A DNA stretch of 64,000 nucleotides from an uncultured Methanosarcinales archaeon (GCA_964485195.1 CAZAIK010000004.1:33673-97672); one strand, 5' to 3'; shown: positions 2,026-48,943, numbered from the stretch's first letter. A program made the numbers and translations. Notes: generated by a model not told the origin, from the sequence alone.

Positions 2026-3711
2026 TTGTCGGGAATCCATTTTAATCAAAATAATAATTATTTTCTCATGGGGCACGAAACAATAAGGGACGTCAGAAAG
2101 CTTTTCCTCAACAGGGATAATATGGACGAATTCATTCGTTTAACAATCGGCGCCTTGACAGAGATGGTTAACTGGTATACCGGAATCGAGATTGAAAATA
2201 ATTTGAAGATTAATCCAGGCGATTACAAAAATGTGGGGGTGCACAATGGCTGTTCTGTTGAGGAGGCAGGCAAAAGAACAATAGAGCGGATACCGGAAGA
2301 GCTGCCAAAACAGCTGACTGAATCCTTAAACAGTGAACTTGAAGAGATAGTGAATTTCCTGAAAAACGAAATAAGGTTCAATGAGAATTTTATGGGCCAG
2401 ATGCACCCCTCCCAAAACATCGCTTCCTACGCTGCAGGAATAGCGGCTAAGTTTGTGAATGGAAATACCGTTACAGGCAGTGTTTCAAGGGCCACATCCC
2501 AGATTGAGCAAAACAGGGCAGTGCGTTGGCTTTGTGAAATTTTGGGGTATTCCCCTGAAAAAGCATCTGGCACCATTGTTTCAGGGGGGACAAAAGCAAA
2601 TTTAACAGCCCTGGTGATAGCAAGGAACCGTGCATTGTTCCATCTTCAGGAAATAAACAACGAACCGTTTGAGCAGTACCTGTTAACACCTGAGCAAATC
2701 CTGGATTTTAGCGAAAAAAGCTCTGCAATTATGGAAAACCACGGGGTTGCTAAAGTGGGAATGCAGGCGGTTAAGCCAAAGTGCGTCTTATACATGCCGG
2801 AAACAGCACATTACAGCCTTGTGCAGATACCCAATTTTATCGGGTTGGGAATTTCAAATATCAGGAAAATAAAAACAGACAAGAACCACAAAATAATAAT
2901 CCACGAGCTGACAAGACAGATAGAGCTGGACAAGTCAAGGGGAAATTACATAATAGGAATTATAGGTATTGCAGGAACAACAGAGGCGGGGGCTGTGGAT
3001 GACTTGGAATCTCTTGCAGGCATTGCTGAGGCATATAATCTTCACTTTCATATCGATGCGGCACATGGGGGTCCTTTCAGGATGGTGAGGCCAAACTTGT
3101 TCAAGGGGATGGAAAGGGCGGATACTATAACAGTAGACCCTCATAAAATGCTTTATTCACATTACAATGCGGGAGCTTTGCTTGTTAAGAACAAGGAATT
3201 CCTGAACCTGCTCAAGGCAAAAGCAGGATATCTGTTTGACAATGGTGTTTTAAACATAGGTGAGAACAGGATTGCCTGCTCAATGGGGCTGGAATCAGCC
3301 CTGCAAACATATGCTTCGCTGAAAGTTTTTGGTGAGGAAGGCTTGAAAGCACTTCTGAACCACAGCTTGGAGCTCACACAGAATTTTAAGAAGGTTATAG
3401 ATGCAGACAAAGACGAGGTGGGGAGGCACATCAAGCTTGTCAATCCCGAGCCGGACCTTAACCTGCTTTGTTTCAGGTATGAGAACACGGATTTAAGCAA
3501 AGAGGAACTGGACAGAATAAACAAGGAAGCCCAGCGCAGGCTTGAAGAGGAGGGAAAGTTCTATTTTTCAAGCGACAATATGAGCTACAGGCGGGGCATT
3601 GCAGTTCTCAGGGCTGTAATGATGAATCCCTTCACTACGGATGAAATTGTAAAATCGGCCTATGAGAGAACGAAGGACCTGATGTTGGAGGTGAAGAATG
3701 AGGGATTATGA
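2026..3711 (+). CDS. Group II pyridoxal-phosphate-dependent amino-acid decarboxylase, possibly aromatic/tyrosine decarboxylase-like. Unusually long at 561 aa.
   Basis: Motifs SGGTKANLTALVIARNR, HIDAAHGGPF and TVDPHKMLYSHY (PLP-lysine). The first codon is TTG; ATG at 2068 is an alternative start. The end overlaps the TyrRS start by 14 nt. Confidence 0.75.
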   Translation: MSGIHFNQNNNYFLMGHETIRDVRKLFLNRDNMDEFIRLTIGALTEMVNWYTGIEIENNLKINPGDYKNVGVHNGCSVEEAGKRTIERIPEELPKQLTESLNSELEEIVNFLKNEIRFNENFMGQMHPSQNIASYAAGIAAKFVNGNTVTGSVSRATSQIEQNRAVRWLCEILGYSPEKASGTIVSGGTKANLTALVIARNRALFHLQEINNEPFEQYLLTPEQILDFSEKSSAIMENHGVAKVGMQAVKPKCVLYMPETAHYSLVQIPNFIGLGISNIRKIKTDKNHKIIIHELTRQIELDKSRGNYIIGIIGIAGTTEAGAVDDLESLAGIAEAYNLHFHIDAAHGGPFRMVRPNLFKGMERADTITVDPHKMLYSHYNAGALLVKNKEFLNLLKAKAGYLFDNGVLNIGENRIACSMGLESALQTYASLKVFGEEGLKALLNHSLELTQNFKKVIDADKDEVGRHIKLVNPEPDLNLLCFRYENTDLSKEELDRINKEAQRRLEEEGKFYFSSDNMSYRRGIAVLRAVMMNPFTTDEIVKSAYERTKDLMLEVKNEGL

Positions 3712-4915
3712 GCTGGAGAGAATAATAGAGGAGCTTCAGAGGGGAGCTGTGGACTTCATCACGGACAAAGAGCTAGCTTGGAAATTCATCTCTGCTGAAA
3801 AGGAAAGGAGGTCTGTTGTTGTTAAATATGGTGTTGACCCCACTGCGCCTGAGGTACACATCGGCCATACCGTGACTTTGAGGAAATTAAGGCAGTTCCA
3901 GGATTTTGGCCAGCAAGTGACATTTTTGATAGGGGATTTTACCGCGAGAATTGGCGATCCTTCAGGAAAGGATGATGCAAGGAAGCCGATGACGGAAGAA
4001 GAGGTGGCTTCAAATGCAGAAACCTACAAAAAGCAGATATTCAAGATATTAAACCCTGAAAAAACAAACATCGTGTACAATAGTAGCTGGCTCAAACAGC
4101 TTATGCTTGAAAACTGCCTTAAGCTTTTGGGGAGCGGAACTATCAATGACCTGATAAAAAGGAGATCGTTTGCAAAAAGGTTTGAGGAAGGAAAGCCGGT
4201 GTCGGCAATAGAATTAGTATACCCTTTTCTGCAGGGCTACGACTCTGTTTTCTTGAATTCAGATGTTGAGGTAGGAGGAACAGACCAGTACTTCAACCTT
4301 GTTTTCGCGAGGGAATTGCAGAAAAAATATGGGCAGGAGCCTCAAGCAGTAATCACAATGCCCCTCCTTGAGGGGCTTGACGGCGACGAAAAGATGAGCA
4401 AGAGTCTTGGCAATCACGTGGGGATTGATGAGGACCCAAAAACAATGTATGCAAAAATAATGTCCTCAAATGACAGGGTGATGTTCAAGTATTTCAGGCT
4501 GCTCACCCAAATCCCCCTTTCAGATGTGGAGAAACTGGAAAAAGAGGTGGAAAAGGGAAGCTTACACCCGATGGATGTGAAGATGAAACTTGCTTTTGAT
4601 ATTGTTTCGCAGTATCATGGAAACCCGCAGGCTGGCCAGGCGCAGGAAGAGTTTATCAACATCCACAGGCACAAACAAACACCCTCCGAGATGCCGACAT
4701 ATTTCCTTGAATCGGGAAAGCCGGCAACCATAGCGGACGTACTGGTTGAGGGGGGCATTGCAAGCTCAAAAAGCCAGGCAAGAAGGCTGGTCCAGCAAAG
4801 AGGCGTGAGACTTAATAACATAACACTTGAAGATGCGGACAGGCCAATTGAGTTTGAAGACGGGGACACAATCAACGTAGGGAAAAGAAGGTATCTTCAG
4901 TTGAAGTATAAATAG
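3698..4915 (+). CDS. tyrS: Tyrosyl-tRNA synthetase, bacterial type, with a C-terminal S4-like RNA-binding domain.
   Basis: HIGH motif (PEVHIGHTV), KMSKS, FLIGDFTARIGDPSGK, LQGYD, and a C-terminal S4-like segment (SKSQARRLVQQRGVRLNN). 405 aa. Confidence 0.85.
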   Translation: MRDYELERIIEELQRGAVDFITDKELAWKFISAEKERRSVVVKYGVDPTAPEVHIGHTVTLRKLRQFQDFGQQVTFLIGDFTARIGDPSGKDDARKPMTEEEVASNAETYKKQIFKILNPEKTNIVYNSSWLKQLMLENCLKLLGSGTINDLIKRRSFAKRFEEGKPVSAIELVYPFLQGYDSVFLNSDVEVGGTDQYFNLVFARELQKKYGQEPQAVITMPLLEGLDGDEKMSKSLGNHVGIDEDPKTMYAKIMSSNDRVMFKYFRLLTQIPLSDVEKLEKEVEKGSLHPMDVKMKLAFDIVSQYHGNPQAGQAQEEFINIHRHKQTPSEMPTYFLESGKPATIADVLVEGGIASSKSQARRLVQQRGVRLNNITLEDADRPIEFEDGDTINVGKRRYLQLKYK

Positions 4916-5134
4916 ATGAACAAGCAGGGATTCAGCCACTTGTTAAAGCATTCCGAAGAGTTAAAGATTGTTTCTTTTTTTGAGAAGATAAAGAACCTCG
5001 TTGACTCTGTTGACATAGTCATTGACTGCCCCCTTCGGTTGTTGCGAAACCATATGAAAACATCCTGGAGATTCCCGGAAATAATCCGTAAAGCAAGGGC
5101 CAATTCTTTTTAACTTAAAAGAACAGAAAAAATC

Positions 5135-5868
5135 ATGAAAAAGTCAGATATTTTGATTGTAGGAACAGGAATCGCAGGAAGCCTGGCAGCTTATGAACTC
5201 CAAAAAATAGGGATAGATTATACATTAATAACTGAACAGGCAAATCCCCTCAGAAATGTCTCCAGCCTGAGCTTCGGCCATTTCAGGATTGCACGCATTG
5301 GCGAACTGGAGCAGTTTGTGAAAAGATGTGTTTTTGAGTTGGGGGAGGATGAGGAAAAAATGATGCTGGTGTATTCCAACAGCCATCTGACCTCTAGATT
5401 ACTGGGTGAGTTGGGGATGCCATTTGAAAAAAGGAGTTTTGGAGTCATCCCCACAACAAAGGGAAGGGGAGGGGCGTGCTTGTTGGCGAAACAGTCAGAA
5501 AAGGCTCGTTTGTTGATGAAAACGGAAAAGCGGTATTTGACAGGAGAACAGAGAAAATGCTGAAGCAGGATAATTACCACGAAATATTTCCTCAGATAAC
5601 AGAGCGAATCAGAACAAGGGAAAAACAAGGCCACAAGGTTTATTTTATGCAAGGGGATAATATGATTCCCATAACCCCCTATGTTCATTACACTGCGGGA
5701 GGGATTAAAACAGACAGGCTAGGCAGGGTTGAAGGGTGTGAAGACCTTTTTGCAGTGGGTGAATGCCAGGCCAACGGATTCAAAAACAACGGCAGGCTTC
5801 CTGGATATCCCTTCACATCCGCGGTTGTTTACTCAAAAATCCTGGCAGAATATTTCAGTAAGATTTAA
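5135..5868 (+). pseudogene. Frameshifted, miniature FAD-dependent oxidoreductase related to L-aspartate oxidase / succinate dehydrogenase flavoprotein.
   Basis: ORF 5135..5563 carries the N-terminal DILIVGTGIAGSLAAYEL FAD-binding site. ORF 5476..5868 in another frame carries HYTAGGI and LFAVGECQANG...NNGRLPGY. The capping domain is missing; the two pieces total about 245 aa against roughly 500 expected. Confidence 0.5.
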
Positions 5869-6037
5869 ATATGACATATGAGTAACAATGAATATGAGCA
5901 AAGCAGGCAAACAGAATTTGAATGAGTTTGCTAGCCAGTACTCTGGGTTCTATTATTTTTATTGAACAGGGATTCTCTTTTTAGTAGGAATCCCATCACA
6001 AGAAACCTAGAGCCAGCACTATAAAAAAAGTTTGGAG

Positions 6038-6162
6038 CCTCGCTTAGCTCAACGGCAGAGCGTTCGGCTGTAGAAAACACAAGACAAGGTCCCTTATGGG
6101 GTGAGAATGAAATGTGTTCAGCTGATACCGAAAGGTTGCCAGTTCAAATCTGGCAGCGGGGA
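6038..6162 (+). tRNA. tRNA-Tyr (anticodon GUA) with a 53-nt intron at the canonical 37/38 position (6074..6126). C1-G72 pair and A73 discriminator.
   Basis: Cloverleaf folded by hand. Acceptor CCTCGCT/AGCGGGG, D-stem GCTC/GAGC, anticodon stem TTCGG/CCGAA, loop CTGTAG|A, T-arm GCCAG-TTCAAAT-CTGGC. Confidence 0.75.
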
Positions 6163-6177
6163 TACGGAGGTAACAAA

Positions 6178-6450
6178 ATGGAGCTGAAAGAAATAAGAGA
6201 GCACCTGGACAGGCTGGACAATGCGCTTGTCTGGATTTTGGCAGAAAGGATGAGTTTTATTCCGAAGGTTGCGGAATTTAAAGCAAAAAACAAGATGGAG
6301 AGGTACCAGCCCGAGAGGGAAAAGGCAATTCTGGAATCAAAGAAAAAACTGGCAGAACAGCAGGGGGTTAATCCGGCTTTGGCAGAGGGCCTGTTCAAAA
6401 GGATTATAGAGGACGCCCACCGCATCGAAGAGGGAATAATAGGAAAATGA
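6178..6450 (+). CDS. Chorismate mutase, AroQ class.
   Basis: MELKEIREHLDRLDNALVWILAERMSF is the typical CM motif. Starts 16 nt after the tRNA-Tyr 3' end. Its stop overlaps the next start. Confidence 0.8.
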   Translation: MELKEIREHLDRLDNALVWILAERMSFIPKVAEFKAKNKMERYQPEREKAILESKKKLAEQQGVNPALAEGLFKRIIEDAHRIEEGIIGK

Positions 6451-7283
6451 GGCCAGAAACAATCTCAATCATCGGCGGAACCGGCAAGATGGGCAGTATG
6501 TTCAGGAACATCTTTGAGAAAGAAGGATACAAAGTTGTTGTTAGCGGAAAAAACACAGAGATAAGCCCTGAAGAGGCAGCTGCCAAAGGAGATGTTGTAA
6601 TAGTCACGGTTCCCATAAGGAAGACAATCGAAACAATCAAGAAAATAGGGCCCCATGTTAAAAAAGAAGCTCTCCTGACTGATTTTACCTCAGTGAAGGT
6701 GGAGCCTGTCAAGGTAATGCTTGAGAGTTCTGAAGCAGATGTCATTGGGGGGCATCCTGTTTTCGGCCCCACGGTTAAACTGAAGGGACAGTATTATGTC
6801 TTATGCCCTGCCCGGGGAGAACGATACCTTGGCTGGTTCAAGGGATTTCTGGAAGGGAGGGGTTGCAAGGTAATCATCAAGACCCCAGAAGACCATGACA
6901 AGACTATGGGGATAATCCAGTGCTTAACCCATCTGAGTGTAATTGCAATGGGAGGGGTTTTAAAGAGTATGAACATCGATATAGGTAAAACACTTGAGCT
7001 TGCATCCCCAATCTACAAGATGAGAATAGGAATAGTGGGAAGGATACTCAATCAGGACCCCGAACTTTACTCCGACATCCAGATTTACAACTCAAGCTCT
7101 ATGGAGATAGGAGAGGAATACAAAAAATCAATTGAAAAGCTCCTGAAGATAATTGAAGCAAGGGACTTGCAGGCATTTGACAGGTTTTTCAAAGAAGCGA
7201 AAGAATATCTTGGGGACTTTTGCAAACAGGCGCAGGAGGAAAGCGATTATATGCTTAAAAAACTGGCTGAGAGGGAAAAGTGA
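6447..7283 (+). CDS. tyrA: Prephenate dehydrogenase.
   Basis: N-terminal Rossmann motif IIGGTGKMGSMF. GGHPVFGP. Overlaps its neighbours by 4 nt on both sides. Confidence 0.8.
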   Translation: MRPETISIIGGTGKMGSMFRNIFEKEGYKVVVSGKNTEISPEEAAAKGDVVIVTVPIRKTIETIKKIGPHVKKEALLTDFTSVKVEPVKVMLESSEADVIGGHPVFGPTVKLKGQYYVLCPARGERYLGWFKGFLEGRGCKVIIKTPEDHDKTMGIIQCLTHLSVIAMGGVLKSMNIDIGKTLELASPIYKMRIGIVGRILNQDPELYSDIQIYNSSSMEIGEEYKKSIEKLLKIIEARDLQAFDRFFKEAKEYLGDFCKQAQEESDYMLKKLAEREK

Positions 7284-8104
7284 AAACAGGTACATTAGGG
7301 CCCAGGGGAAGCTTCAGCGAAATTGCTGCCAGGAGGCATGATAAACAAACAGAAATTGTTTTCTTCAGGCATATCTATGAGATTTTTGATGCTGTTAGAA
7401 ATGCAGAGGTTGATGAGGGTGTAGTTCCCATTGAAAATATGATTGAAGGCACGGTCAGGGAAGTGCTTGACAGGTTGTATGAGAACGACTTGAAAATCAT
7501 CAAGGAAGTGATCGTTCCGATACACCACTGCCTGGCAGCCCAATCTGATGATTTCAGCAAAATAATCTCGCACCCCCAGGCACTGGCACAGTGCTCTGTT
7601 TTTCTGAAGCAGCATAAGGAAAAATATGTTGAAGTGGAAGAAACAACAAGCACCTCAAAAGCCATGGAGATTGCTGGGGAAAATCTGGAATGCGCAGCCA
7701 TTGGCTCTCCAAGGGCGGCAGAGTTGAATAACCTCAAAATTATAGGCACAGAGATTGAGAATAACGAGAGAAATGCAACAAGATTTATCATAATCAGCAG
7801 GACCCAGGAGGAAAGAAAACAGGAAGACGCGAAGTTCAAAACGAGCATAGCGCTGCATCCTGCTGAAGACCGCCCGGGCCTTTTGTTTGATATTCTCGCT
7901 ATCTTTAAAATACAAAATGTCAACCTCACAAAAATAGAGTCAAGGCCCACTGAAAAAAAGCTGGGGGAGTACATATTTTACATTGACTTTGAAGGACATC
8001 GGCAGGATGAAAATATAAAACCTGTAATAGATTTCTTAAAATCAATTGTTCCAACCATAAAAATATTCGGGAGCTATGAAACAGAGAATGACAGTCAGCA
8101 ATAA
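7280..8104 (+). CDS. pheA: Prephenate dehydratase with a C-terminal ACT domain.
   Basis: TLGPRGSFSE, HPQALAQC, and a C-terminal ACT domain (GLLFDILAIFKIQNVNLTKIESRP). GTG start. Confidence 0.85.
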   Translation: MKTGTLGPRGSFSEIAARRHDKQTEIVFFRHIYEIFDAVRNAEVDEGVVPIENMIEGTVREVLDRLYENDLKIIKEVIVPIHHCLAAQSDDFSKIISHPQALAQCSVFLKQHKEKYVEVEETTSTSKAMEIAGENLECAAIGSPRAAELNNLKIIGTEIENNERNATRFIIISRTQEERKQEDAKFKTSIALHPAEDRPGLLFDILAIFKIQNVNLTKIESRPTEKKLGEYIFYIDFEGHRQDENIKPVIDFLKSIVPTIKIFGSYETENDSQQ

Positions 8105-9185
8105 AGTAAGGAATATGGACCTGAGCGGCGTCAGAAAAATGTTTGAGATGGCATCTAGTATTGAAAACCCTGTCAGCTTAACGATAGGCGAGCCTGATTT
8201 TGACATTCCTGAAAATGTAAAGCAAAAGGCAATAGAGGCAATTAAAAAGGGAAACACAAAATACACTCCCACAACAGGAATCGTCGAATTGAGGAGAGCT
8301 CTGCTGGAAAAACTCAAGAGCGAAAATAATATCACTGTTGGCGAGGAACAGCTCATAGTAACTTCAGCTGCTTCAGGGGCCCTGTCAATAATCCTTACAA
8401 CAATTCTGGAAGAAGGGGATGAAGTTATCATACCTGACCCTTATTTTGTGGCATACAAGCATCTTGTAATACAGAATGAGGCAACCCCCGTATTCGTGCA
8501 TTCAAAAAAGGATTTTTCGCTTAATCTTGAGAAAATAAAAGCAGCAATCAACAGTAAAACAAAGGCAATTTTGATTAATTCTCCCAATAATCCCGCAGGA
8601 AAGGTTTACTCGAAGGAGGAATTAGGAAAACTTGCTGAAATTGCGCGGGAAAACAACCTGCTTATAATCTCGGATGAGATTTATGAGAAATTTGTATTTG
8701 ACAAAAAGCATTTCAGCGTAGGCAGCATTTATGAGAACACAATAACAATAAATGGATTTTCAAAATCCCATGCAATGACAGGCTCAAGAGTTGGCTATTG
8801 TGTTGGGCCAAAGGGAATAATCCAAAACGCAATAAAGGTCCAGCAGGTCAATTTTGTGTGCGCGCCCACAGCGTTTCAGTATGCAGCAATAGAGGCATTA
8901 AAAACTCCTGTGGATAAAGAGCGGGAAGAGTACAGGAAAAGAAGGGATATGATTTATGAAGGGCTGAAAGGCAAGTACGAGATGGTGAAGCCCGAAGGAG
9001 CATTTTACGCTTTTGTAAAATACCCCTACAGGGGCGATAAATTTGTCAGGGACTGCCTTGAAAAAAATCTCCTGGTAGTTCCAGGAAAAACATTCTCAGA
9101 AAAAGATAGTCATTTCAGGATATCGTTTGCAGCAAGCCGGGAAACAATAAAGAAAGGGATAGAAATACTTAATTCCCTTATTTAA
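8076..9185 (+). CDS. Class I aminotransferase (aspartate/aromatic aminotransferase family).
   Basis: LTIGEPDFDIPENV, NSPNNPAGKVY, and SKSHAMTGSRVGY carrying the PLP-lysine. Confidence 0.85.
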   Translation: MKQRMTVSNKVRNMDLSGVRKMFEMASSIENPVSLTIGEPDFDIPENVKQKAIEAIKKGNTKYTPTTGIVELRRALLEKLKSENNITVGEEQLIVTSAASGALSIILTTILEEGDEVIIPDPYFVAYKHLVIQNEATPVFVHSKKDFSLNLEKIKAAINSKTKAILINSPNNPAGKVYSKEELGKLAEIARENNLLIISDEIYEKFVFDKKHFSVGSIYENTITINGFSKSHAMTGSRVGYCVGPKGIIQNAIKVQQVNFVCAPTAFQYAAIEALKTPVDKEREEYRKRRDMIYEGLKGKYEMVKPEGAFYAFVKYPYRGDKFVRDCLEKNLLVVPGKTFSEKDSHFRISFAASRETIKKGIEILNSLI

Positions 9186-39103: not shown

Positions 39104-39190
39104 GGCGGTAATAGTTTAGTGGCAGAATACAGGACTGTGGCAGAATACTGCGGAAATCCTGTGGCCCGGGTTCGATTCCCGGTTACCGCC
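39104..39190 (+). tRNA. tRNA-His (anticodon GUG) with a genome-encoded G-1, a C73 discriminator, and a 15-nt intron (39141..39155).
   Basis: Hand-folded. Acceptor GCGGTAA/TTACCGC, G-1 at 39104 pairs with C73. Anticodon stem CAGGA/TCCTG, loop CTGTGG|A. T-arm CCGGG-TTCGATT-CCCGG. Confidence 0.7.
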
Positions 39191-39206
39191 CTGTCATATT
39201 TTATAG

Positions 39207-48852: not shown

Positions 48853-48942
48853 AGCCCCGTAGTCTAGCGGCCAAGGATGTCAGGCTCTGGAGACTGGTTC
48901 AGGAGAAACCTGGAGACCGCGGTTCAAATCCGCGCGGGGCTA
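48853..48942 (+). tRNA. tRNA-Gln (anticodon CUG) with A1-U72 and a 17-nt intron (48891..48907).
   Basis: Hand-folded. Acceptor AGCCCCG/CGGGGCT, D-arm GTCT-AGCGGCCAA-GGAT, anticodon stem TCAGG/CCTGG, loop CTCTGG|A, T-arm CGCGG-TTCAAAT-CCGCG, discriminator A. Confidence 0.7.
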
Positions 48943-48943
48943 C

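Follow-up and report, generated by a model that had tools for sequence, protein, structure and literature searches.

Leader-peptide attenuation is a textbook bacterial mechanism, and transcription and translation are coupled in archaea. T-box riboswitches, present at tyrS and at aromatic genes of Firmicutes, bind uncharged tRNA through a specifier codon and need no ribosome, and the E. coli thrU-tyrU-glyT-thrT-tufB unit is a co-transcribed tRNA-mRNA operon. Here we describe a locus on the plus strand of a 64,000-nucleotide (nt) stretch of archaeal DNA (GCA_964485195.1 CAZAIK010000004.1:33673-97672; the whole stretch is called the window below), where an intron-containing tRNA-Tyr gene stands between a short open reading frame (ORF) rich in tyrosine and phenylalanine codons and an operon for chorismate mutase (CM), prephenate dehydrogenase (TyrA), prephenate dehydratase (PheA) and an aminotransferase. 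Described leader ORFs with which it can be compared include pheL, the leader peptide of E. coli pheA (PMC3082878), and the leaderless polycysteine short ORFs of the mycobacterial "Cys ribulon", where stalled ribosomes were proposed to block a duplex that hides the next ribosome-binding site (Canestrari et al., bioRxiv 10.1101/834739). Described units that join a tRNA to an mRNA include mitochondrial tRNA punctuation and t-elements (PMC3790967, PMC1920247) and plant dicistronic tRNA-mRNA transcripts (PMC8166872). A literature search of incomplete coverage turned up no account of a leader peptide that senses amino acids in any archaeon, and where recent Ribo-seq papers on archaea bring up upstream ORFs, they do so in general terms only, calling them "reminiscent" of those in bacteria.

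We propose, with a probability of roughly one half, that the CM-tyrA-pheA-aminotransferase operon carries the tRNA-Tyr gene in its 5' leader, behind a leader-peptide ORF that would sense charged tRNA-Tyr and tRNA-Phe. The order in the window is TATA box, ORF, hairpin, tRNA-Tyr and CM operon (coordinates in Table 1). Judging from the comparisons below, we lean toward the view that aromatic ORFs of this kind act as functional sensors somewhere in this family, and we suggest only tentatively that the window ORF governs the enzymes together with the tRNA-Tyr. The closest named homologues of TyrA (48-50% identity) come from Nanoarchaeota/Woesearchaeota bins; from this kinship, together with introns in all three tRNAs of the window, we infer that the host is a DPANN (Woesearchaeota-like) archaeon. 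Sequencing runs SRR7048220 and SRR7048218 also contain the sequence of the window.

The upstream ORF has four Tyr and three Phe codons among its 23 (7/23); its last five residues are F-Y-Y-F-Y, and tyrA and pheA are downstream of it. Among all six-frame windows of eight codons, a fraction of 1.2e-4 has at least six Tyr/Phe codons, and this ORF is the sole Tyr-dominated one. An alternative in-frame ATG is found at 5888. To score promoters, we used a position weight matrix (PWM) for the B recognition element (BRE) and TATA box, built from 38 promoters of relatives' tRNA-Tyr genes. The TATA box in front of the ORF scores 12.9, which places it in the top 0.03% of window positions, and it is the sole site above 2.0 between 5850 and 6180. 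A second positive site in this interval is ACTATAAA (6018-6025), with a score of 2.0 and 12 nt between its end and the tRNA. Window genes with strong TATA boxes have the box mostly 28-32 nt before the start codon (mode 29-31), and leaderless mRNAs therefore appear to be the norm in this genome. The spacing at the ORF is the same, which suggests that its ATG would stand at the very 5' end of the transcript. A scan for sigma-70 promoters and hairpin terminators returned sites no commoner than in shuffled controls; such a scan is inapplicable to archaea, and the BRE/TATA PWM was used instead.

Related loci (designated by L numbers) were scanned in two ways, for aromatic-rich short ORFs and, without bias, for a TATA box followed at 27-34 nt by a start codon and a short ORF. 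Aromatic-rich ORFs with an ATG at 29-31 nt were found only upstream of aromatic operons, namely in the window and in five related loci, and the PWM scores of all six lie between 11.6 and 14.3. The five related ORFs are MEKAIKRKTLNHFDSHISGFYYYFY in L151, followed by a hairpin and tRNA-Tyr; MRKTSNVNDKNLASASFKFYFYFW in L085, followed by FAD-CM-TyrA-PheA-aminotransferase; MAHTSSYVNWSASYFSAFYFSW in L066, followed by DAHP synthase-CM-TyrA-PheA; MNATATQALFFGQSYFYFRS in L005, followed by DAHP synthase-DHQS/CM; and MNSRNVRIIVGLRFVYFF in L159, followed by CM. One more aromatic-rich hit falls within a minus-strand gene of L152; its start codon is TTG, at 27 nt. The background of such ORFs amounts to 22 in 1.2 Mb, both strands counted. 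A DNA alignment of the ORFs from the window, L151 and L085 has only indels whose length is a multiple of three, that is, in-frame ones. Trp codons occur in the ORFs of L085 and of L066, whose operon includes the common pathway, whereas the window ORF, which precedes the Tyr/Phe branch only, has Tyr and Phe codons only. The agreement with L151 extends to the whole arrangement: TATA box, ORF (…SGFYYYFY), hairpin, ACCTAGAG box and tRNA follow in the same order, the TTTAAATA motif lies at the same distance from the short ORF, and 27 of the first 30 nt of the tRNA match the window tRNA. An aromatic frame upstream of Nre in L082 was set aside: it lacks a start codon, Nre itself is preceded at 30 nt by a TATA box, and what reads as a frame there is probably the T-rich region of a terminator.

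Frames with the same bias also occur in Methanomicrobiales, here meaning the 18 loci brought in by the TyrA search (L016-L077). In all of them (18/18), a stop-terminated, aromatic-rich frame ends 32-63 nt before aroA', the gene that opens the archaeal aromatic pathway, and 5-7 of its last 8 residues are aromatic (e.g., ...FGFYYRFYYWY, ...FYRYFTRFIRF and ...RYFGYFWYFY). Since these genomes are GC-rich, AT bias cannot explain these Phe/Tyr/Trp runs. In most of these loci, a stable hairpin begins 2-8 nt past the stop codon, with the end of its 3' arm in the purine-rich Shine-Dalgarno (SD) tract or next to it. An automated check of SD pairing found 6 of the 18 clearly paired; full sequestration of the SD as a demonstrated feature was therefore dropped, and we call the hairpin adjacent to the SD or partially overlapping it. 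The frame is a candidate leader peptide, and the lineages that have it include cultivated Methanoculleus (L046 and L064 are Methanoculleus loci) and the genera Methanoregula and Methanolinea. Taking both groups together, archaea may have ribosome-mediated leader-peptide control, in which leaderless (DPANN) or short-leader (Methanomicrobiales) ORFs ending in runs of Phe, Tyr and Trp codons would register charged aromatic tRNAs and gate aromatic operons and, in the window, tRNA-Tyr as well; we offer this generalization as a possibility to which we give somewhat less than even odds.

A separate, highly conserved 15-codon ORF or DNA element, M-x-G-E-C-F-F-A-G-E-C-F-Y-x-x, was seen in L045 (7211-7258), L064 (7210-7257) and about a dozen other Methanomicrobiales loci. 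It contains a tandem GAGTGTTTTT-like repeat, lies 150-200 nt before aroA' and may serve as a promoter, as a site for a regulator or as another leader peptide.

In the window leader, helix P1 is present in both the minimum free energy (MFE) and the centroid folds, and hairpin P2 begins 4 nt past the stop codon of the ORF. The box that forms the 3' strand of P1, AACCUAGAG, is kept as GACCTAGAG in L151 and as GAACTAGAG in L081. At the place of P2, L151 has a different hairpin (GGGG/CCCC), and L081 retains the 3' arm GAATCC. In L085, the counterpart of the box is GAGCTTAGAG, directly beside the SD of the FAD gene there. The equivalent of P1 in L085 pairs CUUUAAGUUC with GAGCUUAGAG and, by inspection, differs from the window helix by one compensatory and three one-sided changes; as predicted, it extends into the SD of the FAD gene and covers GAG..GG. 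A search of 5800-6250 against Rfam returned the tRNA only, with no known leader RNA and nothing T-box-like. Two similar boxes, at 5999-6014 and 6023-6039, are present in the window leader, and either could pair with positions 5941-5949 of the ORF. The 15 nt at the 5' end of the tRNA (6023-6037, AAAAAAAGTTTGGAG) align with the SD box of the L085 FAD gene (CAAAAAGAGCTTAGAGAGG), and the tRNA looks placed where an SD-led ORF would sit.

These features can be combined into a working model. Transcription would start at about 5894, directed by the upstream TATA box, and the 5' end of the RNA would be the AUG of the 23-codon ORF. Going by the related loci, this ORF would encode a leader peptide whose translation gauges how much charged tRNA-Tyr and tRNA-Phe is available. 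If there is little, ribosomes would linger on the aromatic codons and cover the 5' strands of P1 and P2; the leader would then fold differently, and more transcript, or more usable transcript, would reach tRNA-Tyr and the biosynthetic genes. RNase P, RNase Z and the splicing endonuclease would excise and mature the tRNA, as in established tRNA processing, and the RNase Z cut would leave an operon mRNA with a 15-nt leader carrying the SD. In the window, the regulated step could be read-through, processing or stability, in either direction. The tRNA separates the sensing ORF from the ribosome-binding site of CM. In relatives without the tRNA (L085 and the Methanomicrobiales), the same kind of ORF stands beside a hairpin that reaches the SD tract of the next gene. 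The first-pass annotation had suggested another link, a coupling of Tyr/Phe synthesis to the maturation of tRNA-Tyr; we found no evidence of it, and the upstream Tyr/Phe-rich ORF is a more plausible route.

Several observations weigh against this model. With respect to the ORF, about half of the related DPANN operons examined have none of the kind (L082, L152-155, L157 and L160), and TTT and TAT codons arise readily in AT-rich spacers. With respect to the RNA, no U-run follows the 3' strands of P1 or P2 and no hairpin-plus-U-run terminator comes after them, hence no concrete switch can be drawn; no mutually exclusive pair of structures was found in the leader folds. The P1 partner in the window is not beside a ribosome-binding site and does not touch the SD of CM, the next element being the tRNA. 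T-runs in the leader carry little weight, as the genome is AT-rich and 208 T5 runs occur on the plus strand of the 64 kb; T5 runs were also considered as archaeal terminators and discarded, because they occur every ~300 nt on this strand and inside the operon too. With respect to the tRNA, this position is seen in only three lineages (the window, L081 and L151), and the contigs lack the sequence further upstream in L081 and further downstream in L151. Finally, amino-acid control of tRNA-Tyr would be unusual if this were the cell's only tRNA-Tyr gene.

The same observations lend themselves to plain co-transcription without sensing, in which the tRNA came to rest, or stayed behind, between the operon and a promoter that was already there in a compact genome. 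RNase P and RNase Z would cut up the one transcript, and the ORF would be a relic of an earlier arrangement or a T/A-rich by-product, with no regulatory role left. The intervening tRNA uncouples the ORF from the ribosome-binding site of CM, no terminator-like switch is visible, and tRNA-mRNA units are known elsewhere (PMC1920247, PMC3790967, PMC8166872). The gene order in relatives points the same way. FAD followed by CM is the common ancestral arrangement, found in L085, L151, L152-155 and L157 with a gap of 14-38 nt or an overlap and with no tRNA between, and the decayed FAD gene shows recent rearrangement in the window; other contexts of CM are Nre followed by CM (L082), DAHP synthase followed by CM, and leaderless CM (L160/161). 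On the other hand, a relic is expected to decay, whereas the window and L151, with only 74% identity in CM, have the ORF, its TATA spacing, the hairpin and the box in common, and the indels are in frame. Aromatic operons of other DPANN lineages and of Methanomicrobiales also have analogous ORFs in front. Given this conservation, we consider co-transcription without sensing rather unlikely.

How the tRNA came to this position can be judged from its distribution. A metagenome scan with 20 nt of the tRNA 5' half returned 61 loci, nearly all with a tRNA-Tyr bearing a ~50-nt intron; none of them has a homologue of any neighbour of the window tRNA, or an aromatic-pathway gene nearby. A broad synteny of tRNA-Tyr with CM or tyrA was thus rejected (0/61 metagenome loci), and tRNA-Tyr was likewise found in 0 of 80 genome loci. 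L081, whose TyrA is 62% identical, has this tRNA 34 nt before tyrA; the intron is 52 nt long, the 5' flank is homologous, an SD is present, and CM is located elsewhere on the parent contig. The L151 contig (SRR13394437) stops behind the tRNA, which is preceded there by FAD-CM. N-terminally extended CM homologues (P0141, P0152 and others) were considered as tracers of an upstream tRNA and discarded, as the extensions are unrelated. The synteny that the first-pass annotation proposed to look for in relatives is therefore mostly absent: most of them have FAD or DAHP synthase before CM and no tRNA between, and the metagenome copies have no aromatic gene. By this distribution, the tRNA is a lineage-specific passenger or insert within a longer leader, probably not its head. 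The arrangement had been described as unusual; a tRNA embedded after a sensor-type ORF is unusual, and the tRNA is not a conserved part of the operon.

Both the proposed control by the ORF and co-transcription without it place the tRNA and the operon on one RNA. Of 46 tRNA-Tyr genes from relatives, 38 have a BRE/TATA element (consensus AAAnnTTTATAAA) whose end lies 23-27 nt upstream of position 1 (mode 24), and 35 have a run of at least four T residues within 40 nt after the discriminator, often directly after it. The tRNA-Tyr genes of the window and L081 have neither a TATA box at 23-27 nt nor a downstream T-run; in the window, no run of four or more T residues occurs within 60 nt downstream. 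The PWM score stays below zero throughout the tRNA and its intron, so no promoter-like site lies inside. The 15-nt spacer is too short for an archaeal promoter and CM has an SD; the CM mRNA would therefore begin further upstream. With no promoter or terminator in the spacer, and a tRNA without signals of its own, co-transcription is the most economical reading, and we think it likely that the tRNA and the operon share one transcript. A single transcript had been proposed in the first-pass annotation, to be contested by a separate promoter between 6162 and 6178 with a terminator after the tRNA. Our sequence scan found neither, and a common transcript has indirect support in the empty spacer, the signal-less tRNA and the same tRNA before tyrA in L081. 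The tRNA itself had been proposed to lead the transcript but probably does not; the predicted start is ~145 nt further upstream, at the leaderless short ORF.

Alternatively, the tRNA and the operon could be separate units, with the tRNA transcribed from the weak ACTATAAA site or by read-through from the TyrRS operon, and CM transcription starting in or after the tRNA, e.g., from the T-loop sequence TTCAAATC acting as a pseudo-TATA box ~36 nt before the ATG. MAFFT does align the TATA box before CM in L085 with the window T-loop, at a similar distance to the CM start codon, and some relatives (L160/L161) have a leaderless CM with a TATA box of its own. However, the T-loop site has a PWM score below zero, the site at 6018 predicts a start at ~6050, inside the tRNA, and a start at ~6174 would remove the good GGAGGT SD of CM; the lack of a T-run after the tRNA also speaks against separate units, which we regard as improbable.

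The tRNA-Tyr gene with its intron, as called in the first-pass annotation, is borne out by two tools. The Rfam match (RF00005) scores 52.2 bits against a gathering score of 29 and spans model positions 1-71, the full cloverleaf. ARAGORN with introns enabled (-i) reports tRNA-Tyr(GTA) with a 53-nt intron after position 37; its default run overlooked the gene. Inspection places the 5' exon at 6038-6073, with the anticodon at 6070-6072; the intron follows at 6074-6126, and the 3' exon spans 6127-6162. Also by inspection, C6038 and G6161 form the C1-G72 pair, A6162 is the discriminator A73, and the variable loop has 5 nt (AGGUU); the C1-G72 pair, A73 and the short variable loop are of the archaeal tRNA-Tyr type and, with the GUA anticodon, agree with the archaeal/eukaryal Tyr identity set. 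The D-loop G18-G19 and the T-loop UUCAAAU are intact, the acceptor stem has a U3-G70 wobble, and the D-loop is one nt shorter than in most relatives. That this is a non-working t-element that only defines the mRNA 5' end, with a functional tRNA-Tyr elsewhere in the genome, would fit the missing promoter and terminator, the wobble and the short D-loop, but is very improbable in view of the full-length 52-bit match, comparable to the other two tRNAs of the window (58 and 49.6 bits in Rfam), the intact identity and loop elements (G18-G19, UUCAAAU, C1-G72 and A73) and an intron that keeps the covarying helix of its family.

An anticodon-adjacent tRNA-Tyr intron of ~50 nt is common to the whole DPANN family sampled, and the window copy keeps the covarying intron helix. 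A strict bulge-helix-bulge for a 37/38 intron cannot be drawn, as the 4-bp central helix has a U-U mismatch; the consensus fold of 39 tRNA family members has instead a longer helix between GGCUG of the anticodon arm and CAGCY at the 3' end of the intron. Across the intron family (6074-6126 in the window; L089-L149), one helix covaries strongly, the 3' end CAGCYG, which pairs with GGCUG of the anticodon arm, is conserved, and the motifs GA on the 5' side and RAUGA on the 3' side are conserved and kink-turn-like. A box C/D guide RNA in the intron was considered: no RUGAUGA lies near the intron 5' end and a single GA/RAUGA pair is conserved, and we make no such claim. A second long insertion, in the T-arm or T-loop, was seen in the tRNA-Tyr of L090, L096, L098, L106, L111, L113, L122, L126, L128, L129, L134, L139 and L147; these appear to be multi-intron tRNAs, as the anticodon-loop intron is present too.

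The two other tRNAs of the window were mislabelled by ARAGORN. The tRNA at 39105-39191 (labelled Ala/Tyr) is by inspection tRNA-His(GUG), with G-1 at 39104, C73 and a 15-nt intron, and that at 48853-48943 (labelled "???"/Ser) is by inspection tRNA-Gln(CUG), with a 17-nt intron. The introns adjoin the anticodon in all three window tRNAs.

Pfam agrees with the identities first given to the four operon genes, and the interval between the tRNA 3' end at 6162 and the CM start codon at 6178 was also correctly placed, with 15 nt between them. PheA additionally matches NCBIfam PRK11898 at 266 bits, over its cut-off. Gene overlaps of 4, 4 and 29 nt had been reported; the first two are confirmed (ATGA and GTGA), and the third is 29 nt for the longest ORF only and 17 nt from the likely aminotransferase start, ATG 8088, which is favoured by homologue N-termini (L085 and L086) and by an independent gene call.

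Table 1. Features of the aromatic amino acid locus and its upstream neighbours in the window
Feature	Position	Strand	Basis or remarks
Promoter-like BRE/TATA element	5856-5871	+	TATA TTTAAATA at 5864-5871, overlapping the stop codon of the decayed FAD gene
Predicted leaderless 23-codon ORF	5894-5965	+	MSKAGKQNLNEFASQYSGFYYFY, then stop; ATG exactly 30 nt from the TATA start
P1 helix, 5' strand	5941-5949	+	CUCUGGGUU; ORF codons 16-19, immediately before the aromatic run
P1 helix, 3' strand (conserved box)	6004-6012	+	AACCUAGAG; MFE and centroid folds
P2 hairpin	5969-5994	+	GGGAUUC (5969-5975)/GAAUCCC (5988-5994); folds; loop has UCUUUUU
tRNA-Tyr(GUA)	6038-6162	+	Rfam RF00005; ARAGORN with introns enabled
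Spacer (15 nt)	6163-6177	+	SD GGAGGT at 6166-6171; no T-run or TATA-like box
Chorismate mutase, AroQ type, 90 aa	6178-6450	+	Pfam CM_2, E = 6e-20
Prephenate dehydrogenase TyrA, 278 aa	6447-7283	+	Pfam PDH_N plus PDH_C
Prephenate dehydratase PheA with ACT domain, 274 aa	7280-8104	+	GTG start; Pfam PDT plus ACT
Class I/II aminotransferase	8076-9185	+	Longest ORF; Pfam Aminotran_1_2, E = 7e-69
PLP-dependent decarboxylase	2026-3711	+	Upstream neighbour
Tyrosyl-tRNA synthetase (TyrRS), bacterial-type architecture	3698-4915	+	S4-like C-terminal domain; Pfam, NCBIfam
65-aa ORF (orf65)	4916-5113	+	
Decayed HI0933-like FAD oxidoreductase gene	5135-5868	+	Pfam

Further upstream, the TyrRS gene lies on the strand of the tRNA, 1.1 kb before it. 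The synthetase matches TIGR00234 at 370 bits, and the archaeal model PRK08560 stays under its cut-off (NCBIfam); a TyrRS of bacterial architecture thus lies beside a tRNA-Tyr that bears the archaeal C1-G72 identity pair. The 58-kb contig of P0003 (ERZ1426824) also clusters TyrRS, a short ACT-less prephenate dehydratase paralogue and AsnC-type regulators; these genes, the tRNA and tyrA make up a "tyrosine neighbourhood" (in the window, 3698-4915 with 2026-3711, 1340-1939, 154-774 and 903-1334). The ORF that follows TyrRS, orf65, was ruled out as a second leader peptide, as it is not aromatic-rich. The FAD oxidoreductase pseudogene has a frameshift and is split into two overlapping frames, and ~290 nt of the L085 version are absent from it. 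An intact FAD gene stands directly before CM in many relatives.

Aromatic-rich short ORFs at aromatic operons thus occur in two distant archaeal groups, and one of these includes cultivated Methanoculleus strains and the genus Methanoregula, which makes the proposal directly testable. If it is true, a single Tyr-codon read-out would feed back on both limits of the Tyr-tRNA-Tyr supply, the tRNA and tyrosine synthesis. If the ORF is inert, the locus would still be a clean case in which an archaeal mRNA may owe its 5' end to tRNA processing.

Compared with the E. coli attenuators pheL-pheA and trpL-trpEDCBA, the window shares a very short leader ORF that ends in codons for the pathway products just before an RNA structure, and in both cases only the codon composition is conserved between relatives. 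It differs in its archaeal host, in the apparently leaderless ORF (no SD, with the TATA box 30 nt upstream), in the lack of a hairpin-plus-U-run terminator and in the tRNA gene between the ORF and the first enzyme gene. With the mycobacterial Cys ribulon, it shares a leaderless short ORF with a run of cognate codons as the first cistron of an amino-acid operon, and the predicted hairpins of L085 and Methanomicrobiales reach the SD tract of the next gene, as there. The differences are the other domain of life and the aromatic instead of Cys codons; in addition, the next element in the window is a tRNA and not an SD-led ORF, so that sequestration of a ribosome-binding site cannot be the direct read-out. 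Like the known tRNA-mRNA units, the window has a tRNA directly before a coding region with no promoter or terminator between, and cuts by RNase P and RNase Z would set the mRNA end. In contrast to them, its tRNA has a spliceosome-independent archaeal intron, the amino acid of the tRNA is a product of the downstream pathway, a sensing-type ORF stands before it, and co-transcription is a prediction. Like other archaeal tRNAs with 37/38 introns removed by the splicing endonuclease, this tRNA has a ~50-nt intron by the anticodon; it differs from them in the GGCUG:CAGCY pairing in place of a strict bulge-helix-bulge and in the conserved GA and RAUGA motifs. The likeness to T-boxes is functional: expression of tyrosine genes is tied there to the charging of tRNA-Tyr, as we propose for the window.

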